A DNA stretch of 63,534 nucleotides, counting the filler, from Hausera hauseri (lineage: Eukaryota): assembly GCA_046269625.1 (NCBI GenBank). It is 10 parts of 10 records of this genome, joined end to end, with 100 filler letters (N's around TTAATTAATTAA, not from the genome) between each part and the next. Parts side by side here need not be neighbours in the genome. Positions count along the whole stretch, not along the records: positions 1 to 8,868 come from JBJURY010516570.1; positions 8,969 to 12,909 come from JBJURY010871404.1; positions 13,010 to 21,561 come from JBJURY010603221.1; positions 21,662 to 26,123 come from JBJURY010568450.1; positions 26,224 to 30,718 come from JBJURY010554450.1; positions 30,819 to 34,784 come from JBJURY010851967.1; positions 34,885 to 40,304 come from JBJURY010258733.1; positions 40,405 to 55,156 come from JBJURY010544341.1; 2 more parts are not named here. One strand, written 5' to 3'. A program made the position numbers and the translations under genes. The notes beneath the pieces were generated by a model. That model was not told the DNA's origin. It searched no databases and was given only the letters and a program-made list of their open reading frames with translations. Shown one piece after another: positions 1-62,065 of this stretch (positions within the stretch are counted from its first letter, which is position 1; each line of letters opens with the position of its first letter).

Positions 1-1
1 T

Positions 2-600
2 CATTGTCGAGCTTGTGGGAGACACGTTTGTAAATAATGTAGTCAGCATCTCGAAACATTCCAATGGAGAGAAATAAATGATCCGATGTTGAAACAAGCT
101 ATTGAAGAGCAAACAAGAAGTTTTGGGCAAACTCCAAGTCAACTCCTCGTGTCAGCCCTCTTATGTTTGCTCTAGTCCAATCAGATTTGTTGATGATACT
201 GAAGTTTGTTAGCAATTCTCCTATAATTTGGATGTCAGGCAACGTCCGTCCTAAATCGCCATTATCTGCTGTACTGACAATATCCGGTAACTATGTCTAT
301 GGAATTAATAAGTGGAACCATGCGGCAGCTATAAGTGCTTAGGCCTCAGTCCCGAAATCAATAACTGGAATATTACCTTTAGCTACCTCTCTGAACTCGC
401 AACATTCTTCATCATCCTCAACTAGTAATCAGCATCTTACAGATATGGATTCTCATTACAAAAGGATAACAATCGTACCATTCGTAGTGCAATTGTCATT
501 GTCTATGGACCCACTTTTGGGCCAATCAAATCTTCTATCAGAGCACAATCTTGGAGAAGGATTCTATCTATGTATCCGACCCCGTAATCATCAATTGGAG
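2..600 (+). pseudogene. Intronless chimera: FYVE zinc-finger fragment fused in frame to a neurobeachin/LRBA fragment (BEACH C-terminus plus the start of the WD40 region)
   Basis: Frame 2 reads HCRACGRHVCK*CS (FYVE core) then DPMLKQAIEEQTRSFGQTPSQLL (end of BEACH). After a frameshift, SPLMFALVQSDLLMILKFVSNSPI...AVLTISGNYVYGINKWNH...LSMDPLL follows the NBEA/LRBA pattern SPLMF...DVIMVLKFPSNSPV...AVVTV...AVNRWHN...IEMDPLI. Contains stops and a frameshift. Confidence 0.8.
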
Positions 601-1419
601 AAAGGCATTTACTTCATTCTCAGTTTTTTCCGTTTCTTGAGTAACGAGAATCAGTCAACGGACTCAAAATTCGCTGCGATTCTTCAAAATATCCTATCAA
701 AGTCTCGGCAATAATTTATTCGACAATAGAAAGAACAAACATTCGAGATGTGTCGACGAGACCGGCGTCGATTTCATCAACAAGGACGATCCAGTGGGGA
801 AAACACTTCAGATGTGGCAAAGTGTAACAATCAGTATTCGGACATTAAAACACAGGTGGGTGAGACTTATTGCCGCTTTACGCCCACCAGTACGACCACT
901 TTTTTCACTTATGCAAGTCTCTCGTGGCTAACACCATTTTTCATTTTAAAGGTTTTTAAACTTAATGTCTTTGGATACTCCTTTAGCCCAATCATCACTA
1001 GCCACTGCTACCCCAGCTGCACTCCCGTACTTTTGTTAACACAGAAGGAAACCGCCCAAGCTCCCCATGCATTTCACCATTTCATTGGAATCATTTCGCT
1101 CCAATTCTCCTTCCTAGTCTTCAGCAGTAATCAACACATTAAAACCATTATAGCTCCACTCGACGCCACGGCGCAGCTCCTATACACCCCTTTATCCTTT
1201 TCACTCAACACTTCCAACTTCTATTTTACACACCAAGGCATTACTGTACATTATATCGACTCACTCCTATCTTTCGTATGCCATGAACGTCCAGTCATCC
1301 ATCTCATGCTCCATTTTCGCCTTCAGTGTGGATCGGACTCAAACCCATCTTTCTCGGATGACAAATACACAAATACAGGCAACGTCTATCATTTGCCACA
1401 TTACCAACAGTCACGAGGG

Positions 1420-2374
1420 TCATTAAATTTACCTTGTGTGGAATTGTTCCTCGACTAAAACAACTGCAGCAAACTATGGCTCCAATTCCACCAACAGTGG
1501 CTAAAATCGAACAACATCACTGGTTCTTTTGTGCGAACCAATAGCCTCTTAATTCTTCTGCCTGCCAACGTCAAGCAGCAGATTAATAATATCTCCGAGC
1601 AGCTGCAATCCTCGACACCTTACGGGATACTCTGTGAAGCTGTACTGTATGTCGCGGATCTTTCGATTGGCAATATAATACAAAAGTACTTTAATGACTA
1701 CACGATATGAAGCCAAAAGTCATCCGATTTTCTCCAAACGGCCATTCTGCAGCTCAGCGTGTTAGGAGTGATACCTACGAATAACGCGGATTTAATTCGC
1801 TGTTATTTCTTATCGTCTTTGCCCAACTCAATAAGAGCCTTACTCACCGTTGTCGACGAGTCCACTGTTATTGAAAAACTGGAAATCATGGCGGTCAAAT
1901 CCTTTGAGATTCTTCATACCAACAGTTTTCTCCGAATTGCGGCTGCAACCACATGTGCTCCAACTACAGAAAACATTTTTTACTGAACAATTGCAAATGA
2001 TGCAGCAACAGTTTGACAGGTTACAGCAATTGATTTCGGACATTACTACCCAACTAAATAATCTTAATGGGCCTCGACGAAGTGAAACCAGACCTTCGAG
2101 GATGAGAAGCATTTCCAGACGCTCTGCTCGATTCATTTCACCTGGCGGACGCATGACTTGTTTTTATCACACGCGATTTTTAAGGGATCCTAGGAAGTGC
2201 TTTTTGGGTTGTTGGTTCTAAAGCGAACGGTACGCTGTGGACAACCCTATTTGTGTCTACCACAATAAGTTCCGGTCACAGGCTAGATAATGTGTTCCTG
2301 GTTGTAAACATAACAATGATAAATCTCCTCGATTTTCTTCCTCTTCCTTTTCTCCAAAACCTTTAAAAAACTAA
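1420..2374 (+). pseudogene. gag: gag of gypsy copy A (frameshifted), with two tandem C-x-x-H...C-x3-C motifs
   Basis: LPCVELFLD...WLQFHQQWLKS, FLSSLPNSIRALL, coiled coil, then CFYHTRF..PRKCFLGC and CVYHNKF..AR*CVPGC. Ends at AAAAAAC-TAA (2365-2374). Start is approximate. Confidence 0.8.
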
Positions 2375-2475
2375 TAAGGCCGCCAGATTTTACGACACAT
2401 TCTGCCGCAGGCAATATCGGTCAATCTTCTGGCCGTTTCAACACCGCCTCTGCAGTCTTTCCGTTAAAAGCTGTA

Positions 2476-5423
2476 TTGTTATGCAGAGATACTTCACATA
2501 TCGACTTCCTTATAGACTCAGGAGCTGCCTTTTCGCTTCTTCCCTTGTCCTTCGTTCCCACATCGACTATGATTTCCTGCCCACCGCTTTTCACTACCAG
2601 TGGTCAACCGTTGCACGTTGCAGGAACCACGGAATTGACTTTCACATTCGCCAACTTGTCAGATAAGTTTGTCTGGAAGTTCCACGGGGCCAACATTAAA
2701 TCTCCCATTATAGTCTCAGATTTTCTTGCCGCATATAATCTATTGGTCGATTGCAAATACAGCTGTCTTTTAAGCAGGAAATCTATTGCAACTCCAAACA
2801 TGTGCCTCGTAGACAATTTAGCGAGCAATTTGTTGTACTTATCTGAACATGTTGAACGCTTTGTCATCTATAAAAAATTTGCGATAAAGTCGGTAATATT
2901 TCAATTATGAACGACAATCATAAATCCATTCTAAATCAGAAATCCAAATTAGGCGTCGACAGTAGCGACACCAGTTGCTTTTCGTCAATCATTGGAGCTG
3001 TTCTCTCTAATGATATGTCTCATTCATTCTTGTCTCTGGACTCCAATTTTAAATCATACGTCACAACATCTTGCTTTCGCATAGGTAAAAGGACTTCAAC
3101 TTCAAGCCTCCATCCACAACTTATCATCACATAGTAACAGCATGAGAGGCCGATCAAACAAATGGTCGGACCTTTCACGCCACGCAGACGTAAAGCTGTG
3201 GAACAGGAATTTAATGAACTGGAATGGTCTGGCATCATTCGGGGATCGAAATCACCGTGGGCTTCTCCTCTTCGTGTAGTGGTAAAGAAAGATGGTACCT
3301 ATAGGCCATGTGGCGACTATCGACAAATAAAAAATCTAACTTTTACAGACGCCTACCCACTACCACTCATTAAAGACATTCTTCATAGCCTCAGCAACAC
3401 CAATACATATTCTACCATTGATCTGCACAAAGCCTACCATCAAATTCATGTTGCCCCTGATGACATTCCAAAAACTGCTATCATCACACCATTTGGTCTT
3501 TACGAATACATCTTCATGCCTTTCGGCATTCGTAGCGTATCTTAGACCTTTCAGCACCACATTGACACCGTTCTTTCTGGTCCTGATTTTGCTCACCCAT
3601 ACATAGATGACATATTAGTCGCTTCCAGCTCCATCAAACAACATCATGAGCACCTTAGAATTATCTTCCACAGATTGCATCAAAACAACCTGCAAATTAA
3701 TTTCGCCAAATGAAATTTCTTCCAGAAACGCGTCAACTTCTTAGGCCACAAAATTACTCCCGACGGGCATTCGCCCCAGCCCGATCGCTTACAACAATTA
3801 AAAAATGTGACGTTTTCAACTAATACTACCGATATGAGTTTTCTAGGGACATTGCATTTCGTACACAAATACGTGCCACCCTGCTCGGAACTAACGCCAC
3901 CTTTCGCACACCTGGCATCTGGGAAGAAAAGACAATTAATCCATTGGACTCCCGATCTAGTAAACCAATTTGATCTCCTTCGTGAAGGTCTGAAAACTGT
4001 GGAAATCTTGGCCTTTCCAAAGCCAAACGCCGAACTAATATTAACTACCGATGCCTCAACCACAGAAACTGATGCGATATTACACCAAATATACAATGGC
4101 GTCGATGAACCATTAGAATTCTATTCCAGAAAGCTCAAGCAACCGGAAAGTCGATACTCAGCATTCGATCGTGAACTCTTGGCTGTAGTTCTAGCGGTAA
4201 AGCATTTCAAAAACTTGCTTCTTTTACGTCAATATACCATCCAAACCGACCACAAATGTCTATTTCACATAACGGCTTTGAAACACCCCTCACCCAGGCA
4301 AGGACGACAGATATCATACCTGTCGACGTTTAATTTTACCATGAAATATATTTTAGGCACCGAAAATTTAGTAGCGGATTTTCTTTCGCGATCGGTTAAC
4401 TCAATTACATTTCAGCCAATTTTCACATCTGAGGTCCTGAGAAGCAATCAGACATCTTCTGATATTCTCCAAGCTTTTGAATCTATTGAAATCATCGATA
4501 GCATCGCTTATGACACTTCTGACTCGACCAACAAAAAAGTCATTCTTGCTCCATCGCTACAAAAGACAGCTTTCAATCACTTTCACTCTCTTCATCATCC
4601 GGGTTCAAAAGCCACATTCCGTCTAATGCAACGCCACGTTGTATGGCCAACTATGCGTATAGATATACAGATCTGGGTTAAGGGATATGCATCATACCAG
4701 CAATACAAGGTTCACAAACATCTTAAACCCCCACTTTACCACTTCCATTGCACATCTCGTTTTGACACTGTGCATTTGGATCTTGTCGGTCCTCTACCAT
4801 CCGATAACGGCTATCAATATATCTTATCCATGATGGATCGCGTTTCTCGCTGGCCGGAAGCCGTTCCGCTTCGATCAACCAACGCTGACTCAGTAGCAGA
4901 TGCATTTATCGAGATATGGGTCAGCCGTTTTGACTCACAACGTCACATCATAACGGATCAGGGTCCGCAATTTGAAGCTGATCTTTTCAAATCTCTTGTA
5001 AAGCATTTGGGAATAGCCCATCTCCATACGACGCCGTACCATCCCCAAGCAAATGGTCTTTTCGAAAGATTTCATCGCACCATGAATATTTCCTTAAACA
5101 TTTTGGCAAACAACAATCATAACTGGACCTCAATTCTTCCTCTTGTCATACTCGGTTGGCGCAACACGCCATCCACGACCACAGGCTGTGCAACAGCTGA
5201 GGCTATCTTTGGGACACCAGTTCGTGCACTATTTGAACTCTCCAATTTCGACGAAAGTCCGACAGATGAAGTTATTTGTGCGGCACAGTCTCACTTTGCT
5301 TATGTCAACTCAAATGCCTTTAGCCGTCTTATAAATAAAGACAAATCTTATCCCAGAGGACGGGCTGATTTCGGTTACTTTCTGGTTTTCGGCCTTAATA
5401 TGTTGGTCCTTACAAACTACTGA
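2476..5423 (+). pseudogene. pol: pol of gypsy copy A (protease-RT-RNase H-integrase), interrupted
   Basis: ORFs 2476-2910 (DSGA), 3162-3545 plus YIDD near 3600 (RT), and 3807-5423 (RNase H, integrase zinc finger and DDE core). Confidence 0.93.
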
Positions 5424-6033
5424 ATCTTTCTTCGTACACCGTTACTATTTTACACAAGGACAGACCTAACAACGTAGACATCTCTAATCTTAAGCCAGCC
5501 TTCTTCATTGACGATGACCAGGATAACAGCATAGTTTTAAATCCCAACTCTATCTTTTCTGCCCTCGAGCCATCATCCAATTTCCTTGATGATTTTAATC
5601 TTTCGCAGCAATCACTATCGCGTCACAATCAGTTCTTTTCACTGCCGTCATCATCCACTGCTCCTTCACCATTTGCTTCTCCCTCATCGCCTGCACATCC
5701 ACTACTCATTTCACCTTCATTGCACGATTCGCTGCCATCTCCAGTCTCGTCTTCTTTGTGTTATCCTTTTCTTTTTCAGCTTCTCCACTTTTACCTCGTC
5801 ATGAAGCATCCTCCCAAAACACCACAAAATCCACAGTATCTCTTCCTCAAACAACTCTACAAGCACCAGTAACATCTAACAGATCACGCAAGTGACAAAT
5901 AGTACTTACAGCAGGGAGAAGTTCATAGATGGAATCCAACGTCTAACTCGGACCAAAAACGAGTAGGTACAAGCTCTTCTTTTTCTACTATAATCCCCAT
6001 TTATTTTCCTCTTCATAGTCTTTATTTTGCCAC

Positions 6034-6055
6034 GGGAGGAGGGTGATGTTGTGCC
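6034..6055 (+). promoter_or_regulatory. Polypurine tract and start of the 3' LTR (GGGAGGAGGGTGA|TGTTGTGCC)
   Basis: Lies downstream of integrase. The same GGGTGA|TGTTGTGCC junction occurs in copy B (14972-14992, minus strand). Confidence 0.85.
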
Positions 6056-6406
6056 TTAAATGTGGTTGCGCTGGAGGGGTTGGTGGATCGGTGACGCGAT
6101 CTTCTCCGCCACATGACTAAAAAATTTTTTACGTGTATATGTGACTCTAGTAATTCTGCATACTTGTGTTATGGTCTTTACCAGTTTTTGTTTCTTCAGC
6201 GTTTTTATTCGAATGCCAGTTGAATCGAATGATATTTCCAATGAGTATCGTCGTTCCAATTAGTTTATATATTACAATATTGGAATGAAACGATAATTAC
6301 CAATAGACGAACTGATCCCTAAAGACATTCGTTGCATAATTATTACATATAGTCGCGTTATTATTGTGTATATATATATGGATATAAAATTGTGTAGATA
6401 CAAGAA

Positions 6407-8868
6407 ATGGATTTATGGATTTTAATTGTTTTTTGAATTTGCATACAAGAATAAATACAAAATAATTGTCATCCAGAAATTGTCTTCATTATCATTGGAA
6501 TTATGTTACGCCCTCATAAAACCGAACGCACATTGGTGTAAGAAGTGGGATACGATTGATACACATCTGCAATCTCGAGCATTCCATGCAAGGTACAACA
6601 GTTATCAAAAATCTCATTACTTAAATTATGTTTCTGAAAATTTTCGACACTGCTCTAGCTAATGGTTCAGCCTTAATGCTCAATTCTTCCGTAGATGATC
6701 TGGCTCTTTTTAATTTGGATAAAAACAAACTTGCAAGCACAACGAGTGGCATTATTACCGATGATGATACAATAATTTTATTCGCCAGTGCTGTAATTCG
6801 AAATTCCGCTCTCCAATATCCACAGAATGTCCTAACCGGTCAATTTACCGTTGATGGTAAAAAGGGTACCATTATTCCTTTTAAATTTCAACACCAGTTG
6901 CTGTATCGAATAATTTCCGTGTGCGCATAAACCACGCTGCTGAAGCATTGTTCCTTGATACAGACAGCATAGTCTAGAATGGTGGTACTTCTAAAAAGAC
7001 ATTAGCCGATAACATGGAGGCAGTTGTTAAAACGATTTCAGATTTTGCTGATGAATTTGAAGATCGAATAGTTGAAGATCCGAATAAGGAAAAGGAAGCA
7101 CAAAGGACAGAGGCTCTAAACCGTGTTAAGTCTGCAGAATTCAGTATTTATGATGACAAAAGCACAGAAGGTTCACGATTTTCAATGCCAAGTACTGAAT
7201 GTCTAGTTAGTGCCAATTCTGTAAAACATGACGAATGTAAAATGTTTTCAGACACTTGAACTAACTTATTCGGAAATTAGATGTCGATTGGACGATTTTT
7301 TAGCCATAGTTACTCCAACATTGAGGGAAATCAACGCCACTATGGAGAGAACTGATAAGGTCTTTTCAGACCCTTTTCCAAAGTGCTGAACAACGACGAA
7401 GTATTTCAACGAATATTAGCAACCAATATAAATTGACCTCATTCGATTATTTGGATTGACTTGGAGAGCTGACCACTGTTTTCAACAAATCCCGAATTCA
7501 CAAATGTGTAAGGGACTTGGGATCAGAGGTTACTGAAGAATTTCTGGGATTTTTCGAGTTTTTACAGAAGATTAGTCAGAATCCCGATGATAAATTTATT
7601 AAATCATATTGGATGTGTTTTATGAGCTACAGGATAATATCAAATCATTATTGGATTTTTTCGCACAGTTGTATGCTTCAGATGACCAACAGAAGAATCC
7701 GAACAGACGAGTCTCTTTTCGTGAACAATCTCATAAAAATGAACTGTGTGCCTTCGAGATCCATTGTTGCCAATCAAAAGGAAATTGTCGTTGAATTACA
7801 TAATATATTATCTGATTTCAATTGACGAAGCGGTAATTTTATGGTTGATCGAAACGTGAAACCGTTAGTGGAAGAATTTATAAAGTTCATAAAACTTTGC
7901 AATGACCTCATCGGTATGTCTCGACAATGTTTTATTAATTCAAAGACATCATTAAGTTCAACAATGGCAAAGGCCGATTCTCTAAATCCTGATGCTACTA
8001 TCGATATTAATCAGGTAGTGCGAATAATTCGTAACTGCAATTGCAGCTCAAATAATAACAACCAGAGAACTTTGAGTTGGATTAGAGAAATATGTCAAGA
8101 ACACGCGCTTATATATACCAAAGGCATAGTACAGATGTACTACTATTTGTGAAATATGTTCTAGTCAATGCACTCATCACCTTTCCCGTAATGGCAATCA
8201 CAAAAATGATATGCAGTGCGAAAATATTGATAAAAACGAAATTTATTACTTTAAGCAATGCATCGTTTACAATTTGTTTACGAAACATGTTCTCCTCGTA
8301 TCAAAGTCTACCAGAAATCAGAATTTTTTCAAAAAACGTTATTTCATACCCTTTCAGGGTCTTCTTAGTTGAATGTGACAGACAAGGTATTGCATTTGAT
8401 TCGAATATACTCTGTATATCGTATGAAAATACGGTTGATGTAGTTGATATATGCAAGTGGCCTGGTCAGAATTTCTTAAAAGATAACGTTCATCCAATGA
8501 GTCAGATGATCATCGACGCTGTAAAAGAGTATTCAGAAAATGTCAACCATTTACTTCAGTCAGGTGAATATTTATTGGACGTAGTCAATCCGGACTACTG
8601 GGAACGGACTAGTACAGATAGTTTATGCAGTTCTTTTAAAAGATATTTATGAAGCTTATGAATAAGCACCAATGTCGTAGTTGTAAACAAGTTCTTTGCA
8701 GCTACTGTTTCCAGGATCAGTATAACAGTCGGAAGCTGTGTTCGGAATATTATATTAAAATTCAAACCACGAACTTTGGTAAGGATCCGCCAATTGTCAC
8801 CGTAAAAAGCATAAAATCATCAACATATGGGTACCCATTCGGATACTTTCGAAAATCGTTGACAACAT
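6407..8868 (+). pseudogene. Degraded intronless host-like coding region ending in a FYVE finger (possibly FGD-type DH-PH-FYVE RhoGEF)
   Basis: Chain of overlapping + ORFs. PDYWE...C...KHQCRSCKQVLCSYC...RKLC near 8590-8745 is FYVE-like. The DH/PH assignment of the upstream part is tentative. Confidence 0.5.
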
Positions 8869-13224: not shown

Positions 13225-13699
13225 TTCTGTTTTGCGCGTTTAGTTTTATCCTCTATAAAGGGAACTTTATGATACTCGCATTGTTTTTTAGTAATAATGA
13301 TAGCGATGTGCAAAAGTTTAAAACAACCCAAGAAAATTTTAATTTTCAAGTTTCTTTTGTATTTACTGACTTCCTGTTTGATCTAATGATAGCTGTTGTA
13401 GTTTATTATTAATATTTTGGTAATATTATTAACATTTTTATGTATGCCCAGTATTTAATATTGTGAATGAAACTATTGGTTATAGTTGTGTTTATGATTG
13501 TCTAAATTTTTCTAAACCTAACAATGGTGGGGGTAAGAAACTTTTGTTACGGCATCATGGAGAGTAGATATAGGAGCCAATAAATTGTAAATTATTGTAA
13601 AGAATGCTTTTGTTTATTGAATTAGGTTAAGAATATTGCTAAATTTACATTTTTTGTATATTGTGAGAAAATTAATTAGCAATAGGCCAAAAGAAATCA

Positions 13700-14457
13700 T
13701 TGTCACCAACGAAGTGTGCACAGATTGTAGCCTTTTCAAAACTGGAAAAAGCCAAATGAAGACTGCCCGCCACTTTGGCACATCTAGAAAGGCTGTTCAA
13801 GTAGCCTTGAACAAGTTTAAACTGACTGGAGGCTTCAAGGATGTTGCATGGGCTGGTAGACCCAAGAAAAGGACTGACCATGAATAACGTGAAATCCAAA
13901 GAATTGTTTCTGCCAAACCAATAACATCAGCCATTCACGATCAGAGACACTTAACGTGTGCTAATGTTCACATACATCGATCAACTGTCAGTAAACGCTT
14001 GCACAAAATGACTCTAGCAGCTTGCCAAAAATCCGTGTTAACGTACAGAATGCTCAAACAGCATTTAGAGTTTGTTATTGTTCATGAGCACTGAACCGAA
14101 GATGACTTGTGTAAGGTGTTGTGGTCAGACGAATGCTCGATTTTTGAATTTGGCCAACATCATCAATTCATTCGGAGCCCTTCAGGTACTAGATACCGAG
14201 AAAAATACACCTTGCCAACTGTCAAGACCCACCATCAATGATGATATGGAGCTGCATTAGCGGTCTTGGACCTGGTTGTCTCGAGAATGTGCGCGTAAAT
14301 TCTGCAATCTACATTGACATTCTTGAGAAAAATAAGAACTTTATGCAATTGGAATCGTGCACAAAATTTATGCTAGGCTCTGAACCTTTCCATATATAAA
14401 AGGCCACAATGAAATGGTTTAAGCGGAATGATGTTGATCTTTTGGATTGGCCAGGAA
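13700..14457 (+). mobile_element. Tc1-family transposase remnant, interrupted by an LTR at the WPGN motif
   Basis: Helix-turn-helix (KSQMKTARHFGTSRKAV), GRPKK, STVSKRL, VLWSDE, KWFKRNDVDLLDWPG. Stops and frameshifts. Confidence 0.9.
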
Positions 14458-14980
14458 TGTAGTTTTGCTAATATATCCTTGCCATTCATCAATAAGTCAC
14501 TTGATTCCGAGTAATGCATAAATGAGTTGTTATGATTATACATTCTGAGGAAAATAAAACTGACCTTGCAGTGTCTCATTCGACCCAACTTGGTCAAGTT
14601 GCAAGGCACCACCGAACATTTACGCTCAACAAGTGTACTTTGAACTTCACATTTTCTTGACTTTATCATCTGTGAAATACTGAGTTGCATACCAAATTTG
14701 ATCAAAAATATCCGAAAAACAACAAACTCACGCCAACAATTACTACAAAATCTTTATTGAACTTCAAATCAATTTTTTATTTCTTAACTACAACCATTAT
14801 AAACTACATATTATCATCTTCTAACACGATGGGGCAAAAACGACAAAAGTACATAAAATCGTCGGCAATTAAATATTATCTATGTATTATTTCATCTCCA
14901 TTTACTGTTGTTCATACTAGTTCTATATATTTCTAAAAAGAAAATGAGACCAAAGAGCACAGCCCTTGTTGGGCACAACA
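14458..14980 (-). repeat. 3' LTR-like segment of gypsy copy B (TGTTGTGCCC...AAAACTACA, 523 bp)
   Basis: Follows the polypurine tract GGGGGGGGGTGA (14981-14992) and ends in CA exactly where the Tc1 ORF is broken. Confidence 0.75.
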
Positions 14981-17900
14981 TCACCCCCCCCCACGTGACA
15001 AAGCAACGACTATGGACTTAAGAAAGTTGAAAATATGGAGGAACAATGTAGTCTACCTAAGAGGTCCTTGTATAAATAAGACGTTGAATACCATCAATAT
15101 ATAGTTCCTTAGTGTAGGTACTAAATGTGACTGATTTGTGGTGTTTCGATGACTTTATATCTGCTTGCTGAGATGATTGAGGTAAAACAATGTCTAATGT
15201 TGTCGTGTAAGATGTTGTGTCGTTCAAGGACGAAAAAGAAGGGGAAGAAGGAGATGTAGAAGGAAAGAAAATGAACGCTGTGTCACTAGTAGAAGTGGAG
15301 GTAAGAGCGGGCTTTGAAGTAGGATATGAAATAGGCGTAGAGAGAGAAAGGAATAGCAATAGAAAAAGGAGCAGAAATGGAGGTCAGAATGGAAAAAGAT
15401 GTAGTGGGTCTTGAAAGTGAGATAGGAATATGCAAAGGAGTCAAAAAGGGTGTAGAAGATTCAATTTTTGGAATATCATCTACGAAAAAGGCAGGCTTCA
15501 CATTGTTTATATGCACCGCTAGTTCCTTACCGTCTTTAGAGATAATGGCATTGTGAAAGTGCAGTTGAACAAGTTTGTAGGGCACCAAATGTCGTAGGTG
15601 AAAACCGCACAGCATCTGGTTTCTCAACCAGACAAACTTTGCAGAATATAAATCATCAGGAAGGTACATTTTATTGTTATGCAATATTCTGCAAAATAAA
15701 TCTTTACTGATTGCGACAAAGTGGTCCTGTGCCGCTCGGATCGTTTTGTCTGTAGGTGTTTCTTCCAAGGCAATTAGCACAAATAATAAACATATAGGAG
15801 CTCCGAATAGGGCTTCGGGAGGTGAAGTCTTTCGCCAACCTAGCAGAACTAACGGAAGTACGGCTGTCCAACTATTATTGGATTCAGTGAGGATTCTTAA
15901 CGACGTTTTCAGTGTTCTGTGGAATCTTTAGAAGACCATTTGATTGGGGTGATACTGTGTTGTGTGTATATGGCTGATTCCTAATCGATTAACGAGTGAT
16001 TTAAACAGGTTGGATTCAAACTGAGGAGCTTGGTCCATAATAATGAACCTAGGGGATCCAAACCTGCTGATCCATGTGCGGATAAAAACGTCGGCTATTG
16101 TGTCTGTGTTAGCGCTCCGCAGAGGGACAGCTTCTGGCAATCGCGAGGAACGATCCATCATTGTCAAAATAAACTGATGACCGTTGTCAGGATGGAGAGG
16201 GCCAACAAGATCTATATGTACGGACTCGAAACGCGATGTGCATGGGAAATAATATAGTGATGGACTCAAATGCTTGACGGTTTTAAATTTTTGGCAGGCC
16301 ACACATTCCTTAATCCACGCTTGCACATCGGAACGCATAGACGGCCAAATTACCTGTCGTTGAAGCAAGCGAAAGGTGACTTTAGCACCAGGGTGTTGTA
16401 GTAAATGTACGCTGTTGAATGCCTGTTTTGCAAGGCCGCAGCTAAGATTATTTTAACCTGTCTTTGTTTGGGCGTGTCGAAAGCCACGCCGCCAATAATA
16501 TTTCAGTACGTAAATGATTTAAGGATGTCTTGGTGTGGTTGGTTTTCTTGAAGCTGGTTTTGAGTGAAAATAGGCTTAAAGTTAATTGAGCTTACAAACC
16601 TAGATAAAAAGTCGGCGACAAAGTCGTTAACGCCATTTATATGTTTTATTTCGAAATTAAATGTCGACAAATATGAAATTAGTTTTTCCTGTCGAGTAGA
16701 AGGATGTTTCATTCCCATAATGTTTATTAGGGGTTTATTGTCGGTTTGTATCGTGAAACGCCGAGCAGTGAGCAAATTTAAAATATGTTTCAAGACGAGA
16801 ACTATCGCTAGTAGTTCCCGGTCGAACGTGGAGTATCTGGCTTCAGGAGATGCTAGTTTTAATGCAAAAACGCTAGTGGTTGATTTTCGCCTTTATGAAT
16901 CTGGTGTAGTAGAGCACCTATGGCGCTAGTAGAGGCGTCAGTAGTAAGGATAAGCTCAGCGTCTGGCTTAGGGTATGCTAATATTTCGACAGTTTTTAGG
17001 CTTTCTCTTAACTTATCAAACTTATCTAGGAGTTCCGTTGCCCACTGTATTTGTTGATGTTTTCTTCCGCTACTTAGGTAAGCAAAGAGTGCGGTTAGTT
17101 CTGAGCAGTATGTAACATATTTGCGGACGAAATGTAACGTGCCTAGGAAACTCCTCATTTCAGTTGATGTTCGCGGTAATTGCAAGCTTTTGAGAGATTC
17201 AACACGGTCTGGCTGAGGAGAATGCCCTTCGGGAGAAATAACGTGTCCGAGGAAATTTATGTGTCGTTTAAAGAAATGACATTTTGTAAAGTTTATTTGG
17301 AGGTTCTATTGGTGTAAACGGTGAAAGATGTATCGTAGATGTTCCTTATGCTCTTTGGTGGATGAAAAAGCAACAAAAATGTCGTCAATGTAAATATGAG
17401 AATAAGGAAGATAAAAAATTGCATCCATGTGACGCTGGAAAGCTTGTGCGGCATTCCGTAGGCCAAAAGGCATGTAGAAGTATTCGTAAAGGCCGAAGGG
17501 TGTAGTAACGGCAGTTTTTTCGATATCTTCTGGTGCTACCGGGATTTGATGATAAGTCTTTGCCATGTCAATAGTGGAATAGATTGTGGTGAAATTGTGA
17601 CGATGTAATATGTCTTTTATCAGTAGTAAGGGGTACGCGTTCATTATGGTCAAAGAGTTTAGCTGCACATAGTCACAACATGGTCGCCTTTTTTGTACAA
17701 CGTGTAAAGGAAAAGACCATGGTGACTTTGAACGACGTACAATGCTGGAGCGTTCAAGGTCTAGGAATTCGGCTTCCACCGCTTGTCTGCTTCTAGGTGA
17801 TAATGGACGTACCTTTTGACAAATGGCCCTTTGGTGTTGCGTAATGATGTGATGTAAAGTGCTATTTTCTGGTGTGAAAAACCTATCTTTTTGAATTACT

Positions 17901-19942
17901 CGAGTGCATGACATATTAAGGTACTGTTGCAGATTTTTCGGCAATTGTGAAAGATGGGGCGAAAGCAAAATGGTTTTGTCATCAGTAGTTGAAATTTGAA
18001 AGTTACTTGGTGGTTTAACATCTAATAGTATCTGAGGTAGACTGGTTGTGTTGAAAATTGAATCTGACATAGTGCTTTTATTCACTGTTTTTACAGTAGT
18101 GGCAAAATCACACTTGTCGACACTCAATCTTGCTACAATGCCAAAATCATATTTCAATAATTTATGAAATAAATAATGGTTATATGAAATAATCGGTTTA
18201 TTAGCTGGCATTTTCAGAATGGACTTCCTTACGACGCTCGTCTGCTCGACAAATGAGACGCTATTTATCTGTTTGGTTTGATTTTTAATGAATGCACTTT
18301 TCAGAAAACGTTGTTTACAATCCACTAAAAGATTGTAATGCTACAGAAAATCAGATCCAAGAATGGCTGTCTGGACATTTGCGACAGTAACTGTCCAATG
18401 AAACTCTAAGGAGGAATTTGTCAGGGTGAAGGAAAATTTAGAAGTTCCGGAAACATGCAATGGTTGTACCGCAGCTGTAAAAAGAGATTTTATTTTAGAT
18501 GTAACGTTCTAAACAGGAAAAGTCAGCGATAGAAGTAATATCGCGGCGCCTGTATCAATAAGGAAATTTATATGTTGAGGCGTCGGTGCCATGGTAGATA
18601 TATGCATGATATATGCAAACAACATTGTCTGTGCGATACTTCTGGGTATAAAATTTGCATCATAGGTGGCATTTTTGTGCTTTGTTATCAAACCTTCCGT
18701 GGTAATGGCAAATCTGTATATGCCCAGTTGAAGATGAACGACCACGGGATACAGAACGATTACGACCAGAGATAAAACTCCTTCGTTGCGTCAGCGAAAT
18801 TTCATCTAATCTGTTATTAATATTATTAATTGTTTTGTAAGGTCGCATTTTCGGTCCGTAGTTGATTTAATTGTTGTTCGAATGCTGTATTATTTTTATT
18901 AACAGATGCAGAAATGATTGGTTGTGCGTGTAGGTTCAGAACTTCATATATCTTGTCCGCTAATTCGGCCAATTTATCAAGGGCCGTTGATTCTTCGATG
19001 CCGGTAATTAAAGCTAGGATCTGGATGGGCAATGCGTTTAGAAAGTAGCGTCATAAAAGGTCTGCATTATGTTGTTTAGTAACCCTGAGAGTTTGCAGTT
19101 GAGCAAGAGAGGTTCTAAGGAAATCAGATTGTATCTGTGTTCCCTTGGAATTGCCATTGAAGAATCTATAAATAATGGAATCCATAGATGGTTCCGTAAG
19201 TTTTAATACTGCGTTATAGAGATTGGTGTATGGGTCAAGTTGTTGAAAGATATCTAACAGATCATGAATAAATGTTTTACTGCCGTCGGTAACAGACAAA
19301 GTAAGCTGAGCTTTGGCTGATGGATCGGTGATGCCACTAGACTTCAGCCAAAGTTTATGAATATTAAACCATGTTTTGCTTGAATTTTCATGGTCTATAA
19401 AATACTCTGTGCATGGGAAAGAAGTGCTCTTAGACTGCGGGAGAGTAGTGGTACAAGTAGTCATGTTGAGTGGTGTGGTGACAGTTGTTGACTTTTGAAG
19501 ATAGGTGGTGGGTATAGCTGTAGTGGAGGTTTTATGCGTTGTGTCAATTGTTGGTGAAGAATCCATACCACCAAGAATATAAATGTGTACGTGAATAATG
19601 AGATATTTGGTTTAAGGAACGGAAAGGTTGTGAAAATTGACATTAATTAAAGATAGATTGTGAAAAGTAAGGTAAAAATCAGAGATATTAGGAAAGTGTT
19701 GTACATAATTGTGTAAGTAAGGTGCGTCTATAAAGTACGTTGTTTTGTTGTCCAAATAATTGGCAATTATTTAGGACAAGTAAAAGGAGAGAGTTGGTGT
19801 TGGCCCTAGTGGTTGATGTGGTGACGCAACGGACCGTGGGGTAAAACCCGCTGACAGGACAGACGGCCCGGCAGTCGGTTACACTGTGATGCACCCGAAA
19901 ATCCAGAATGATTAAATCCCCTCCGGTGGGTCCAGTCAGGGA
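14981..19942 (-). mobile_element. Ty3/gypsy LTR retrotransposon internal region (degenerate gag-pol), copy B
   Basis: Gag from 19566 (FPCTEYFIDHENSSKTWF), protease [29 protein letters not shown], RNase H TDAS/ADFLSR, integrase HIDLVGPL/DQAPQFE, then polypurine tract. Colinear with copy A. Confidence 0.96.
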
Positions 19943-21066
19943 TGTATTTTGTTTCAAATTTTCAATCTTTTTTTCATGGAAATCGACAATCAACTGAATA
20001 GCATCAATAGAAGCGTTTTTACCACTGTTCAAAGGAATAGAACGCAAATGGAGGTTTTGTATTGTCGAAAAACAAACATCTCATCGTATTCTGCAGGTGT
20101 CGTTGACAAATTAATGTCAGTAGTTGCATGGGACAAATGAAATAAGCCTCCGACAATAATTCCAAAGAACAAGAAGTTTTCATCACACTCCAACTGATTG
20201 AAAAGCGGGTTAAAAATCCGTGTAGCGTGATCGTTATATTTGATTTTATTTATTTCCGAGCCCTCTGACCAATTCCATATTGTCGCCAAATCATTTATTT
20301 CCAATTCGGGTAAGTTGGTAGTTTTCAAATTGACGGAGTTCCTCAAAAAACAACAAAAATGTCGATTAGTTACAGTATACCAATTTCCCCTTAAATCCAA
20401 ATACTGCACATTTGACAGTTTCTTTAACAAGTAAATGAATAGATCTGTACGAATTCCAACAATGTCGTCCGTTTCCAGAGAAAAGATACAACAGGAAATC
20501 TTGATTATAATTCAACGAAATTTTTAGACGTTTTTTGGAACAATCTTCAACATGGGCAGAAGACACATGTCGCACAAGAATTCTTAGATGCATCGACAGA
20601 TTCAGTAGTGGTTTCATAGTAACATAGCGTTTCAAGAACGGTATAATAGTAGTCATGAAAGTATACCGAGAGTTTGTTAATGTTCTGATCATTCTACCTG
20701 TTATGGAATCAATTATGGCCAAATTGAAGTCCAAACAAGTTTTTAGAGAATATATCAATATATAATCCTTGAGAGAAAAATAGCAGTATACCATATACAA
20801 AAGGAGTTCGAATCACAGTTTCAAAGGATGTCAGGTGACGTTTATTAAAAATCAGTGGTCTGAAAGACTGTGGGTCAGGAAAATCAGAGGTATTCCAGGT
20901 GCATAGGTTTAAGGGTTGGCCGTGGAAATTGTTTGCGAGTTTTGTTGAAAGTTTGTCGATAACATGGCTGATGGATTTGGAGTACTTCCACAACTTATTC
21001 CAATGAAACGTAAAAAGAAGGTGGAACTCAGTGTGCTTTACAATGAAAACAGCATAGTGAACGCAT
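19943..21066 (-). pseudogene. Host-like frameshifted ORF with an LRR-like motif, occupying the 5' LTR position of copy B
   Basis: LKKLSNVQYLDLRGN fits LxxLxLxxN. Overlapping minus-strand ORFs follow an AAAAATG at 21066 and end at an AAAATACA terminus (19943). Confidence 0.4.
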
Positions 21067-21661
21067 TTTTTAAAGGCGTCCCTAAGTAAGTCAAAGCTTG
21101 ATTAAATGAAAGGTGATAAGACAGCTAGATGTGAAACTATTAAAAGAAATGTGTTAAAGTCGATTACTTCAGAAGTAACTGTAGTAGAGCTCCTATATGA
21201 ATCTGAGTAGATGGATGTGAGCACATGGCGTCAACCCCCCCCCCCCAAGGAAGGAAAGAAACGAAGTGCTTCGGAGATGAGTCATGAGGTAGAAAAAACG
21301 ATACACACATACACGATTATTAGGGCGGAGATAGGTGACACACAGTCACAAAGTGGATACACACAATCACGCGTCCTGCATGGATTTTAGGTTGTGTAGA
21401 AATCTGAATTTCGCGCAAAAAAAATTTTTTTTTTAATTTTGGTGGTCGGGTAAAATATAGGCTTTAAAATCAGATGAATGTAAAATGTCTGAGGCAATTG
21501 CCTCAAAAACATTGTCCAATTTCAAAATGTGAATGACTGCTGCTTCAGTATTGATACAATTNNNNNNNNNNNNNNNNNNNNNNNNNNNNNNNNNNNNNNN
21601 NNNNNTTAATTAATTAANNNNNNNNNNNNNNNNNNNNNNNNNNNNNNNNNNNNNNNNNNNN

Positions 21662-23364
21662 ACCAATAGATCATGTGAGGCAAGAAAATCTGAGCCTATT
21701 ATGGGAGATTTAATATTGGCCACGTGGAACTTTCAAACAAACTTATCTGGCAAGTTGGTGAAAGTGAAAGTCAATTCCGTGGTTCCTGCAACATGCAACG
21801 GTTTTCCACTGGCAGTGAAAAGCAGAGGAATAGAAATTGCAGTGGATGTAGGGGTAAAGGACAACGGAAGGAGTGAGAATGCAGCTACTGAATCTATTAG
21901 GAATTCGATATGTGAGGTATCTCTGCATAACAGTGCAGCTTTTAACAGAAATACTGCAGAAACGGTGTTGAAACGGCTAGAAAATTGAGCGATATTGCCT
22001 GCACCAGAATGTACAGTAAAATCTGGCGGCATTATTAGTTTTTTGAAGGATTTGAAGAAGAGGAAGAAGAGGAAGGAAAAGGAGGAAATTTATCTTTGTA
22101 GTGTTTACAACAAGGTACACATGACCTAGTCTCTGACTGATATTTGTTGTGGTATATGCAGACAGGATTGTTTGTAGCGTATCGTTCGCTATAGAATCGA
22201 CAGCCCAAGAAGCATTTCCTTGCATCCTTTCGAAAATTCGTGCGACGGAAGCAAGTCATACGTCCGCCAGGTGAAATGGATGGAGTAGAGTGCATTGAAA
22301 TGCTTCTCTCCCTTGAACGTCTGGTGTCACTTCGTCTAGGCCCATTAAGATTGTTTAGTTGGGTGGTAATGGCCGAAATTGACTGGTGTAACTTTTCAAA
22401 CTGTTGCTGCATCATTTGCAATTGTTGAGTGAATAATGCTGTGTCTGTAGTTGCAGCATATGTGGTTGCAACCGGAATTGGTAGAGAACTATTGGCATGG
22501 AGAATCTCAAAGGATTTGTCAGCCATTATGGCCAGTTTGGAGAAAGTCGGATGGCTTTTGATTTCCTATCGCGTGGACGTTAAAATACTTTTGTATTATA
22601 TTGTCAATCGAAGGATCCGTGACATGCAGTACAGCTTTACAGAGTGTTTCGTAAGGTGTGGAGGATTGTAGCAACTCGGAGATGTTACTAATCAGCGATG
22701 TTGTTGGATTTTAACCACTTTTGGTGGAATTGGAGCCATGGTTTGCTGGAGTTGTTCTTGACAAGGAAAAATTTCACACAAGGTAAATTTAAGGAAGTTC
22801 GTGATTGTTGGGAGTGTGGCAATCGATAGACGTTGCCTGTATTTGTGTATTTATCATCCGAGAAGGATTAATTTGGATCCTATCTACCCCTAAGGCGGCG
22901 GTGGAGCACCAGATAGATGATGGGACGTTCGTTGCATATGAAAAGCAAAAGGGAGTCGGAAGGATGTATTATAAGCGCTTGATATGTGAAATAAAAATAA
23001 GAAGTGTACTACGATGAGGACAAAGCGTTATATAAAAGCTGTGCTGTATCGCTGAGTGGCGTTCTTATGGTTTTTACATGTTGATTATTGCTTGAAGACC
23101 AGGAAAGAAAAGGGTAATGAGGTGAACCCAGGGAAAAGATAAAATGCACGGGGGGCTTTGGCGGTTTCCTTCTCGGTTAAGGAAAGGTTTGTGCGTACAG
23201 CGCGGGAAGCAGTGGCAAATGATGATTGTGACAAAGGAATGTCCAAGGTTGTTAAGCTTAAAAATCCTTTAAAATGAAAATTTGTGCTAGTTATAAAAGA
23301 ATTGTATATGCGCAAAAAATTGTCAAACCGGTGGTCACAAATCAGTGAAAAAAATCTCCCCACC
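21662..23364 (-). mobile_element. Ty3/gypsy copy C: 5' UTR, gag and protease, truncated by the contig end
   Basis: Nucleotide-level homology to about 851-2750 starting at CACAGGTGGG, with internal deletions. ORFs 22035-22526 (Gag C-terminus) and 21733-22032 (protease FLIDSVAAFSLL). Confidence 0.93.
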
Positions 23365-23623
23365 TGTGTCTGAATATGGTTTTACTGAACGCCACGACAG
23401 AATCCTCATTATGACCGAGCATTGACGATATGAGTTTAATATAGGATGATTGCGCCGTACAATTTTCAACGAAACCGAAATGTTGTTTTTCCATGTGACA
23501 AGTTTCCTGACGATTGTTCTTATATCTTGCTAAGGTTTATTCAATTGTTCTACTTTGTGGTTCCGAGAGATTGACATACCGACAAAGAACTGTCAACACT
23601 TCGGGTGAATCGGACGGAACGTC
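23365..23623 (-). pseudogene. Fragment of the proteasome activator PA200/PSME4 C-terminus plus a second unidentified fragment
   Basis: Minus frame DVPSDSPEVLTVLCRYVNLSEPQSRTIE*TLARYKNNRQETCHMEKQHF parallels PSME4 [50 protein letters not shown]. Confidence 0.65.
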
Positions 23624-24308
23624 TATAAGATTCTGGCATTTTAATTTCAGTGATTAGAATCAAATTCCATATGAAAATTAAAAACGGCGGACTAATCAAA
23701 AGAATCGAAACATTCCATTAATTTATCTGACCAAATTTAGCAACAAAATTGTTTAAAACAATCAAAATCCAAATATATTTCAAATCATAAAGAAAGGTTG
23801 AGTAAGATGTCTACAACATACCTTTTTTTGAATGTCACCAAATTTAACAAAACATTAAAAATTACATATATATAATTGTTATTTTTTTGGTGGGTCAATG
23901 TGGGCACCACATCACTCCCCCTGACAAATTTAGTTTTACAAGGAGGGATCCAGCGGGGATCATCCGGTAACCAGCAAGTCGGCGGATTCTCCTCCGGTTG
24001 TGTTTCATCTCCTAGTATTTTCCGTTCTGCATTGACCGCAGTGAGAATGGAACGATCTTCAAGCAGATGTTTTGTGGGTTTGACCTTCGGTAGCGCAATA
24101 TCGTTGGGACGATTTTCGAATTCTGCTTTGCGATATTTGAACTCGCGGTCTTTCTGCTTGTTTGGTGAGTTTGACTCGAAATAAACGGTAGTCGGAAAGG
24201 AATGAGAATTCTTGTTGGACTTCGGAAAAGCTGGTGTGAAAGTACTACCAGAATTGTTCATCAATCGTCATAATATACTGTGATGGTACGGCTGTCGACA
24301 ACCTGCAT

Positions 24309-24914: not shown

Positions 24915-25204
24915 TTTAATTTAGGTGATTAGAGTAAAATTCCATACGAAAATACAAAACGGCCGACTAATCAAAAGAAACGAAACATACCATTAATTTC
25001 TCTGACCAAATTTAACAACAAAATTGTCTAAAACAAACAAAATCCAAATACACACTCCAGTGATAAATAAACGTTGAACCAGACATCTACAACACACCCT
25101 TTTTCAAAATTTCACCAATTTTGAACAAAAAACATTAAAAGTTACATATATATTGTTATTTAATATAATTGTTATTTTTTGGGTGGGTCAATGTGGGCTC
25201 CACA

Positions 25205-59578: not shown

Positions 59579-59675
59579 TCAATCTAATTTATTTGATTTT
59601 ATTTTATATTTATTATTAGCTGCTTAGCAGCTTATATTATTCTGCCTCTAATTTCCATCATTCAAAATAATATTT

Positions 59676-60377
59676 TTAAATATCTTTCACACAAACTCTG
59701 CATCTGGGAATAGTCTTTTCGAAGTTTACATCATTTCGATACGTTTCACCAACTGGTTTGGCAAAACTATCTTGAGGCGTTATTCGTAAGTAATAAACCT
59801 TTGCGTCAGACCAATGGTCGCATTTTCCAGCAACATTATTACATTCAATGAACGGAGAATACCGCAAATGTTCAAGACAGCTTCCTGGAGACGACAATTG
59901 TTGACTGCCAGTGGTATGCATAATTAAACTATACCCTTTCCATAATTCACTCCAAGTTTCCGGACAAGGGGTATTAGGCAGGTTATTTTGATTATGGAAA
60001 ACAAATACATGAGATGGTGCACTGCATACTACGCAGCGAGAAACAAGACTTTTCACCTCGCTTACGTTTACAGGCGTTTCTGTAATTGGACTCAAACTGC
60101 TCAACCAATATGATCGATCACTTCGAATGTTAAAATGACATTCTTGACCTCGATCACAGTGAAGAAGAGGAATGATACTGAATTTAGACAAATAGGAACT
60201 AGGACTACCTAAGTCCACTGACATGAGCATTTCACTAGCATCGGCCATTACGAAGCTGTATCCTTTCCTAATAAGTAGGGTACCCTCGGGACAATTATAT
60301 GAATCATTGTTATTCAACGCTTGAAAATGACGAGCAAATAAAATTTCCGTTCGATTTAGGGCTGCGGGTTTGACCAT
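59676..60377 (-). CDS. Stand-alone type IV collagen NC1 domain (two C4 repeats), intronless, 233 aa
   Basis: FARHFQ..CPEG..GYS, DLGSPSS, RSYWLS, SRCVVCSAPS, CPETWSELWKGYSLIMHT, LSSPGSCLE..PFIEC, RCRVC. No Gly-X-Y repeats, and an in-frame stop 14 codons upstream of the ATG. Confidence 0.93.
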   Translation of the reverse strand: MVKPAALNRTEILFARHFQALNNNDSYNCPEGTLLIRKGYSFVMADASEMLMSVDLGSPSSYLSKFSIIPLLHCDRGQECHFNIRSDRSYWLSSLSPITETPVNVSEVKSLVSRCVVCSAPSHVFVFHNQNNLPNTPCPETWSELWKGYSLIMHTTGSQQLSSPGSCLEHLRYSPFIECNNVAGKCDHWSDAKVYYLRITPQDSFAKPVGETYRNDVNFEKTIPRCRVCVKDI

Positions 60378-60749: not shown

Positions 60750-60860
60750 GTGAATGTTTTTCTTCAATCGTTCGCGTGCCATTTTGTTGCCGGCATATAC
60801 CGGTTTAACATCTCTTCCGACTTCATCAATCACTTGCAAAAGACTGTTGTATTTCTTGGG
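60750..60860 (-). pseudogene. CDK2-associated protein (CDK2AP1/DOC-1) fragment
   Basis: KKYNSLLQVIDEVGRDVKPVYAGNKMARERLKKNIH versus the family motif [37 protein letters not shown]. Confidence 0.85.
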
Positions 60861-60954
60861 GTTTTCTGCTGCAGTACTTTGGATAAGAGTTTGTATTTAA
60901 CAATTCAATTATTTCAGAGTTTCGGATATTTTCAACTCCTTTTGAATGTGTGTA

Positions 60955-61190
60955 TTTATCAATAATTTCTATTGCAACTTCTTTCTGGGTGATAACATGC
61001 TTTGCTAGCTTCACTTTTGCAAAATTTCCTTTACCAATAGTTCGAATAAATTTGTACTTTCCAACATTCGGCTGTTCGTGCCAATTCGTTGAAACTCTGT
61101 TATCTAAACCATCTGTTACTGAATCGTTATGCAGAGTAGAATTTGATGGAAAATCGTTTGTATGGACATAATTTTCCTGCAACGGAGGTA
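60955..61190 (-). pseudogene. MARK/PAR-1 kinase N-terminal fragment (subdomains I-II only)
   Basis: EQPNVGKYKFIRTIGKGNFAKVKLAKHVITQKEVAIEIIDK. The catalytic Lys appears as Glu and kinase homology stops abruptly. Confidence 0.88.
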
Positions 61191-61198
61191 ATCCTTGA

Positions 61199-61737
61199 TT
61201 ACTCGTCATCACCGAAATCGTCGTGATTGAATTTCGAATCCAATCCGAACTCGTCATTGTCCGACTCAGCATTAACATCTTCCTCGATAACATTTTCACT
61301 ATCGGTCGCTTTCTCCACGTAGTATTTTGGCGACGACCAAGGAAATCCACGTTTGTTCAACGCAAACTCACAGAGTGTCGTCAAACCTGAACAACATATT
61401 TTCCGCAACCTGACTTCAATTCTGACGGTGAAATATTCAAATTTTCGTTGATCTGTCTGACCGCTTGCAACAACATCGATATACTGGCACTTGGATCATC
61501 GTAATCTTGAGGTTGTTCCATTTTATAACCGCATTCCCGCACGAGCCATGCACCGAGGCTTATGAATGCATTGAATTGTTCTCCTGGGTTTGTTGGAATG
61601 GCAAAATAATGTCGCGAAATAGGTTTCATATGAAATGGTTTGCAAAAGTTTCTTTCATAACCTAATACCTTAAGCTTATCCCATACACTTTCTCTCTTTA
61701 CAAAAAACTTTATAAACACCACCGGGTCCTTCTTCAT
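61199..61737 (-). pseudogene. IFT57: Intraflagellar transport protein 57, N-terminal half, intronless, one frameshift
   Basis: DKLKVLGYE, SRHYFAIPTNPGEQF, AWL, QPQDYDDP, ELKSGCG, GFPWSSP, then an acidic tract. The C-terminal coiled coil is missing. Confidence 0.9.
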
Positions 61738-62065
61738 TTTGAGAATCTGCGGTCACTGCCGTAAACACTGAACATGCAATTATAAAACAATAGTTTTGTA
61801 AAAACTGTTTGACAACCTTCCAACCATGGTTATTCCTGCCCTCCCAGTTCCCCGAACCCTGCCAGGGATCATGTCACACTCATTATTTTACATACTCTTT
61901 TGTATCACGCACACTCATTCAACCAACATGAACACATATTTACACATTCATACACACATATATACACTATATATTTATATATACACTATATACATCCCCT
62001 ACCCTTTTTCACTTAATCTTCTTCATGTTGGCCGGATTCCCCAACTAATCAGTCAGGTTCCAACA

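Follow-up and report, generated by a model that had tools for sequence, protein, structure and literature searches.

Chains of host gene fragments beside decayed gypsy elements of Hausera hauseri, one of them possibly carried between primer-binding site and gag

Results

Gypsy cores and fused host fragments

We analyzed a stretch of 63,534 nucleotides, filler included, from Hausera hauseri (GenBank assembly GCA_046269625.1), hereafter the window, which contains decayed retrotransposons of the gypsy type and fused fragments of host genes. The window is made of 10 separate contigs split by nine identical 100-bp spacers; the spacer at 8869-8968 and the eight others are the same N44-12mer-N44 linker, with nothing readable across them. 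Core A lies on contig 1 (1-8868), core B on contig 3 (13010-21561) and core C on contig 4 (21662-26123), and a chain of host fragments that an earlier note on this DNA had started at 62065 lies on contig 10 (59382-63534). The window is not one locus, A, B, C and the chain each being on a different contig. No tRNA or Rfam match was obtained in the window. All features are collected in Table 1.

The fused host fragments are real. Beside core A, a ZFYVE1-like piece is joined to an LRBA/neurobeachin piece, and contig 10 carries pieces of IFT57, MARK, CDK2AP and collagen IV NC1. All six identified fragments run in sense orientation within their unit, A-runs of 8 or more are absent from four of the five candidate cargo tracts, and colinearity with homologous proteins is uninterrupted over about 250 codons in the ZFYVE1-like piece, 186 in IFT57 and 219 in collagen IV. 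The best homologues stand at 43% (P0002) and 74% (P0006), with no parent mRNA among them. Repeated capture of several host pieces beside gypsy cores, as first proposed, is supported by the common sense orientation, the lack of poly(A) runs and the multi-copy cargo at A.

As for the cores, the Pfam domains RVT_1, RT_RNaseH and rve occur in gypsy order in both A and B; a protease was recognized in the cores by eye, as a motif, with no Pfam match. Stops or frameshifts disrupt all three cores. The gag motif CX2HX9CX3C is present twice in A and once each in B and C. Core A is 75-85% identical to C and about 65% to B, which bears out the internal homology noticed earlier and makes A, B and C related lineages, not copies of one young family. 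This CHCC motif is given as a feature of the CsRn1 clade of Ty3/gypsy (PMC2582038), which our elements also resemble in their TGT...ACA termini and polypurine tract (PPT). They differ from the clade, as described in that paper (PMC2582038), in that both primer-binding sites (PBS) found here are of the tRNA-Leu type, as against tRNA-Trp there, and in that the knuckle of A is doubled. The lineage may be called CsRn1-like only, as it lacks the tRNA-Trp feature (RT in the following stands for reverse transcriptase).

Homology between A and C starts sharply near 830-845 / 23389-23375, a boundary that includes an ACA end listed in the earlier note. The sequence common to both at 852-860 (+) / 23367-23359 (-) reads CAG/GTGGG and is splice-donor-like. 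This boundary might be the start of a leader intron instead of an LTR end (long terminal repeat, LTR).

Table 1. Coordinates of the features in the window, with the evidence for each
Feature	Position	Strand	Evidence and remarks
FYVE finger 2 of ZFYVE1/DFCP1-like fragment	2..85	+	tblastn P0002 aa 684-711, 54%, E 3.5e-4; Pfam FYVE E 5e-4; continues the fragment ending at 8868
LRBA/neurobeachin fragment, in frame with FYVE piece	68..520	+	BEACH C-terminal end at 68-154: PDB 1t77 E 1.5e-6, 1mi1 E 4.6e-5; Pfam BEACH E 0.018
Segment X, core-proximal part of cargo tract	570..829	+	no database match; not homologous to same position in C
Gypsy core A	830..6033	+	leader, gag with two CX2HX9CX3C knuckles, protease-like stretch, RT, RNase H, integrase; stops and frameshifts
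PPT of A	6034..6046	+	sequence; aligns with tract of B
LTR of A, 486 bp, TGT...ACA	6047..6532	+	PPT before, PBS one base after
tRNA-Leu PBS of A	6534..6551	+	18/20 identical to PBS of D; one mismatch in tested 15-mer
Cargo behind PBS of A, like an open reading frame (ORF)	6552..8114	+	no Pfam or Atlas assignment; low copy, 1-5 contigs of sequencing run X1 at listed sites
ZFYVE1-like fragment	8115..8868	+	aa 402-652 of P0002; two frameshifts and a stop; runs to contig end
LTR-like start, cut by contig end	13010..13224	-	no PPT before it
Tc1-type transposase fragment (target sequence), cut at LTR end of B	13621..14457	+	Pfam HTH_Tnp_Tc3_2 E 4.4e-6
3' LTR of B, 523 bp, TGT...ACA	14458..14980	-	PPT 14992-14981, Tc1 junction 14457; no Pfam match in sense of element
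Gypsy core B	14981..19942	-	gag with CX2HX9CX3C, RT, RNase H, integrase; decayed
ORF-like sequence upstream of core B, candidate cargo	19943..21561	-	F-box/LRR-like lead only; no B-LTR copy, no Leu PBS
Gypsy core C, 5' part	21662..23389	-	leader, gag, protease-like stretch; 75-85% identical to A
Segment between LTR copy and core C, no assigned content	23390..23623	-	no PBS, no domain match
LTR copy common to D (3' side) and C (5' side), 288 bp	23624..23911	-	PPT 23922-23912; 81.6% identical to 25204-24901
Gag N-terminal ORF of short element D	24312..24920	-	open from ATG in LTR end through PBS; 33% identical to gag of B, E 5e-10; also matches gag of A, C
tRNA-Leu PBS of D	24880..24897	-	18-mer one base after LTR; central 15-mer is exact complement of tRNA 3' ends
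5' LTR of D, 306 bp, TGT...ACA	24899..25204	-	abuts mariner-like transposase fragment 25205-25719
Collagen IV NC1 domain, both C4 repeats, uninterrupted, stop and AT-rich tail	59685..60341	-	Pfam C4 E 9e-47; PDB
CDK2AP C-terminal fragment	60753..60860	-	Pfam E 1.5e-6, above curated cut-off
MARK/Par-1 kinase N-terminal fragment	60892..61095	-	PDB MARK2 E 1.3e-15
IFT57 N-terminal fragment, frameshifted	61202..61759	-	aa 2-187 of 411-aa homologue; 74% over 109 aa to P0006

Terminal repeats and primer-binding sites

All six starts and four ends proposed earlier as termini were found at their coordinates. The strict start motif occurs five times against 0.8 expected (30 shuffles, maximum 3). The end motif is common (207 occurrences, 158 expected from shuffles) and fails as a specific terminus. 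For the looser start class, needed to include 62065, 20 occurrences compare with 9.6 expected (at most 17 in a shuffle), a weak enrichment; with no PPT directly before it, and on a contig that holds no gag-pol, 62065 is not confirmed as an element start. On the same contig, 62013-61855 (-) shows a purine run, TGT...ACA over about 120 bp and a GC-rich PBS-like stretch before IFT57. The TGT at 62013-61994 could be a better candidate LTR start than 62065.

PPTs precede the starts 6047, 14980 and 23911, and the tracts of A and B align. Three LTRs could be delimited, all of them short (486, 523 and 306 bp). A tRNA-Leu PBS follows two of these, in A and in a short element of contig 4 that we call D; the third, in B, ends in a cut Tc1 gene. 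None of 300 random 20-mers from the same regions has a partner as close as the PBS of A and D are to one another, and this near-identical site at 6534, one base after ACA, sets the LTR of A at 6047-6532. At B, the Tc1 reading frame ceases to match after LLDWPG, at the junction 14457, which was placed with the usual continuation of that motif. A TTCCTGG after 14458, considered as a primer site, proved to belong to the Tc1 gene, which is coded on the opposite strand. The LTR of B has no second copy in the 1.6 kb before 19943, so that no matching LTR ends at this position, and no Leu-type PBS (the only type searched) follows the ends 854, 23365 or 19943.

The main proposal of the earlier note was that the LTR positions are variable cassettes of host sequence. 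No host fragment was found in 14980-14458, 6047-6532 or 23623-23365 by domain scans, one of the two skipping 23623-23365 and 6047-6399. As the delimited LTRs are short, bounded by PPT, tRNA-Leu PBS or target junctions, and free of identifiable host pieces as far as scanned, we do not support this proposal. That each LTR position holds a different sequence is true in part: neither in A nor in B do the two LTR positions resemble each other (scores of 35-38, shuffled means of 32-34), but the flanks of A are one continuous fragment and the LTRs of D are 81.6% identical.

The motif (A/G)AAATG occurs once per delimited LTR, at offsets of 358, 326, 288 and 270, and may be a real LTR motif, situated inside the LTR. 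It had been described as closing a leader behind which host fragments begin. Fused host fragments do exist, but the motif lies inside the LTR, and at 25204 a PBS and the N-terminus of gag follow. On the last contig, (A/G)AAATG is out of frame within the IFT57 coding sequence.

Elements D and C

The LTR pair of D encloses gag. The sequence after 25204 had been taken for host cargo, a candidate that we reject: it is PBS and then gag N-terminus (33% to the gag of B). For the PBS pattern of D, an opposite-strand tRNA ends at it in 97 of 119 metagenome loci, Leu accounts for 79 of 100 tRNA calls, and the letter that D has at the ambiguous place is present in 126/126 matches. In viral contigs the 15-mer was found at 49 loci, with a tRNA at 0/49, and in the literature no occurrence was found among the matches listed.

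We take 25205-25719 to be mariner-like, from its motifs and a weak helix-turn-helix match. The 30-50 bases before both LTR starts of D (23912-23973 and 25205-25251, minus strand) are alike in translation, one being mariner-like coding sequence and the other preceding the PPT. This likeness may reflect chance or a homology-guided join.

Candidate cargo beside core A

Searching with 8086-8649 against 1.84 billion representatives returned four matches, the best being P0002 (43%). This protein of 728 aa combines a B-box with a pair of FYVE fingers, the architecture of ZFYVE1/DFCP1. P0002 is collinear with 8115-8357, 8326-8631 and 8640-8867 (aa 402-652), and then with 2-85 (aa 684-711), where its first FYVE finger reaches E 1.6 only. 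The gap between the end and the start of contig 1 thus equals 31 codons (about 93 nt) of P0002. Since the start of the contig takes up, after this gap, the same ZFYVE1-like gene that breaks off at its end, the contig would be a cut-open loop or a tandem, and the 5-prime and 3-prime 'cassettes' of A would consequently be one cargo tract behind the PBS. The simplest reading of the sequence is a cut-open loop (with collapsed LTRs) or a tandem of LTR-PBS-cargo-leader-gag-pol-PPT. Given this, LTR-element sequence stands on both sides of the cargo of A, with LTR and PBS upstream and the core downstream. There is a residual chance that the FYVE finger at 2-85 comes from another gene and does not continue the ZFYVE1-like piece. 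No end-to-start overlap of 8-60 bases was found in contig 1.

The extension of the LRBA piece from 154 to about 520 was made by eye, with sequence features that we presume to be characteristic. A word-based protein search gave no match for 8086-8649 or 641-853, a PDB search nothing useful for 100-520 (frame 1) or 641-853, and Atlas no name for 6625-6927; domain and protein searches left 7460-8149 without assignment.

Copy structure of contig 1 in a sequencing run

We compared contig 1 with X1, a single sequencing run that contains 0.38 of the words of 1-8868 and is possibly related to the source of the window. Mapping at 80% likeness placed 12,151 X1 contigs on 1-8868; the site figures below come from 40 of 3,358 variant rows, the joints from 15 of 64 and the loose ends from 6 of 1074.

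Divergent X1 contigs cover all 30 bins of 1-8868. Their summed depth, which by the tool's own warning is not a copy number, amounts to 2,600-19,000 over core A and about 190 over 1-592, climbing from 32 to 132, with one dip, over 6513-8868. The bins 593-888 (345) and 889-1184 (393) are of similar depth, which suggests that the cargo-core junction is common to many contigs. At the listed sites, 4-15 contigs were counted in 34-522, 3-11 in 8345-8827 and 1-5 in 6622-8112. The cargo is multi-copy, and more widely common to contigs near the core. Depth also matches across the break of contig 1 (119.5 at 8827 and 148.6 at 34, with five contigs at each of these listed sites). One X1 contig has 36 nt that are absent from the window at 147-150, in the BEACH piece.

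Within the LTR, eight contigs were counted at 6273 and 1-2 at 6346-6471, where the depth of 12-20 is below that of the cargo (21-23 at 6622-6923). Bin 6217-6512, read as having twice the depth of the next bin, would favor a short LTR, a reading that the site-level rows undo. No intron-type joint was present among the joints and loose ends listed, which proves nothing.

Contig 10 and other sequences

The best named homologues of the IFT57 piece, at 51-55%, are from molluscs, a bryozoan, a crinoid and an annelid; the 74% belongs to one further record (P0006). These homologues point to an invertebrate animal as host. The contig is without gag-pol and has a mariner piece upstream. In appearance the IFT57-MARK-CDK2AP-collagen chain resembles the cargo of A and may be a product of like origin; its link to the gypsy family is not shown. 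The collagen IV NC1 stretch at 59679-60416 (-) is open over 246 codons, and its neighbors are frameshifted or shortened. This stretch may be a younger capture. A glycoside hydrolase suspected by eye at 59384-59578 received no support from a PDB search.

Upstream of core B, the F-box/LRR lead at 20032-20511 is weak (Atlas 0.91-0.93 with low recognition), and a PDB search of 20369-20812 gave nothing useful. A G12 run after a pyrimidine-rich stretch at 21247-21232 (-) is like the PPT context of A and B, without a following TGT, and may mark where a further element, lying upstream of B, ends.

Further elements lie elsewhere in the window. At 55330-59279 (+), a gag-like ORF (weak Ty3 capsid match, CCHC knuckle) is followed by broken pieces of a Monjiviricetes-type fusion glycoprotein (best E 1.5e-23), with no Pfam pol domain between them, and a second, decayed glycoprotein piece of this type is present on contig 2 at 10359-10772 (+; E 6e-6). 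At 29030-30715 (-), a piece of DNA polymerase B carries an endonuclease VII-like finger and is probably a Maverick/Polinton-type remnant, the family name being our deduction. At 35960-40300 (+), ACA, two bases and a TGG-starting PBS-like site near 35975 precede a gag-like ORF and several A-rich ORFs without Pfam match; this may be another LTR element.

Discussion

Our results make it reasonably likely that the elements described here are decayed gypsy elements with short, ordinary LTRs, and that A carries a captured chain of host mRNA pieces between its tRNA-Leu PBS and gag, and not in the LTR. The likely unit would be LTR-PBS-cargo of about 3.2 kb-leader-gag-pol-PPT-LTR. We hypothesize that during minus-strand synthesis the RT would jump onto co-packaged host mRNAs and back, and that such template switching would have been repeated several times over the history of the lineage. 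As gag-pol was retained, the chimera could go through further rounds of copying. The site of addition of newer pieces would be near the PBS, as the depth gradient suggests, and this would explain why core-proximal cargo is common to more contigs. D and C would form a two-element complex sharing one LTR.

Several observations weigh against this model. The four fragments with the best identification lie on a contig devoid of gag-pol, and the sequence upstream of B could be plain flank. The fragments may be called intronless by colinearity with homologous proteins, not with parent genes. No read or contig bridging 8868 to 1 was present among the 15 of 64 joints listed, and the figures from X1 are subject to its partial word content and to the nature of summed depth. 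An LTR present twice should exceed the cargo in depth, and 6346-6471 is shallower. Nor does the model explain the sharp start of A/C homology with its ACA. No target-site duplication was found around the LTR pair of D, and the two true ends of A, of B and of C do not share a contig, the 5' LTR of B lying off its contig; in C, the leader is followed by 259 bases without assignment and then the core, with no PBS after the LTR copy. This arrangement of C and the low copy number of the 3' half of A's LTR in X1 lean toward the cassette view.

That view, once corrected, becomes a serious if rather unlikely alternative, in which the cargo sits inside a long LTR. The LTR of A would then be 6047-8868, about 93 nt and 1-854 (about 3.75 kb) at both ends, with the PBS at 6534 as a relic of a captured element end; that of C would be 547 bp, and LTRs would vary between lineages and be identical within one insertion. 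The loop fits this arrangement equally well, A and C both start their common sequence at an ACA-containing boundary, and in C the order over 547 bp is PPT-TGT...ACA-core, without an intervening PBS. The eight X1 contigs at 6273, as against 1-2 at 6346-6471, also agree with it, as does the single (A/G)AAATG per delimited LTR at an offset of 270-358. However, the ends 854, 23365 and 19943 are not followed by a PBS of the Leu type searched for, the depth along the tract is uneven, and the 3' LTR of B has a true junction after 523 bp and is unlike the sequence before 19943. The 5' LTR of D, moreover, ends at a canonical PBS, and gag follows.

We give a smaller chance to a separate origin of the host chains, either as a family of non-autonomous chimeric retrocopies or aboard some other carrier, for example a DNA transposon. 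Situated in repeat graveyards, they would have been joined to the cores by tandem or nested insertion or by later recombination. In favor of this, the four-gene chain lies next to a mariner fragment on a contig devoid of gag-pol, Tc1 and mariner pieces adjoin B and D, and A, B and C each have their own contig. Yet the cargo of A starts right behind LTR and PBS and runs into the core leader, the junction with the core is apparently common to many contigs (bins of 345 and 393), and the identified pieces are all sense to the element. It is highly improbable that the fusions are assembly or library chimeras, from cDNA contamination or amplification: the fragments contain stops and frameshifts, and divergent X1 contigs, one with 36 extra nt, cover 30/30 bins of 1-8868. 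What speaks for an artefact is that the contigs are short and that contig 1 itself is a probable collapse.

Capture of this kind has precedents. Tan et al. 2016 (PMC5131818) report multi-gene chimeras and further cycles of retroposition among LTR-mediated retrocopies. Our case is like these in having what are probably partial mRNA copies within LTR elements, several fused parents, no L1 hallmarks and further rounds of retroposition. In all of their Drosophila cases, part of the internal ORFs was replaced, whereas A keeps gag, RT, RNase H and integrase, in decayed form, with the cargo ahead of gag. By analogy, A may work as LTR-mediated retroposition does, differing in how many pieces it carries and in that they lie in front of a gag-pol that was kept. 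Maize Bs1, as summarized in PMC13317346, is likewise an LTR retroelement with segments of three host genes; it made a new chimeric gene, whereas here the genome is that of an animal and the cargo is broken by stops or frameshifts, except for collagen NC1. The Pxyfem retrocopies of Plutella xylostella (PMC9674220) are also multi-copy, LTR-linked partial cDNAs in transposon graveyards, and they provide a precedent for small RNAs against a parent gene. Unlike our case, known from DNA alone, they have one parent gene and a shown piRNA function (PMC9674220).

Giant Burro elements of planarians (PMC6431247) are also gypsy elements with host-like domains, but these are in a huge polyprotein with a CCHC gag; here the core is about 5 kb, the gag is CHCC, and the cargo is upstream and decayed. 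The LTR-element-LTR-element arrangement of D-C resembles two-element complexes that share one LTR (PMC1950507), and among the template-switch products BARE-2 and Veju (PMC13317346), BARE-2 took foreign sequence into its LTR by template switching. In both sets the joined sequence is retrotransposon or unknown sequence and not host coding chains (PMC1950507, PMC13317346). In addition, no flanking target-site duplication is visible around D-C. Among the papers listed in literature searches, none described an animal gypsy family in which cargo from several genes precedes a gag-pol that was kept.

In animals, most known instances of mRNA capture by LTR elements are young, scattered copies, with cargo replacing element genes. 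Our case also illustrates that LTRs may look non-identical merely because a short-read contig has collapsed an LTR loop. We tentatively suggest, as a possibility, that this CsRn1-like gypsy lineage is a serial mRNA collector that keeps gag-pol, adds pieces 5' of the core, either behind the PBS or in an LTR that grows, and exchanges 5' modules between its many copies. If so, the order of capture could be read from the increase in sharing toward the core, and shuffling or small-RNA silencing would reach many host genes. Were a family to pile up several host pieces in front of gag, retain its enzymes and amplify the pile, animal retrotransposons would include a gene shuffler of the Pack type. Two questions would then become testable: where template switching is favored during reverse transcription, and whether small RNAs against the parent genes arise from captured pieces.

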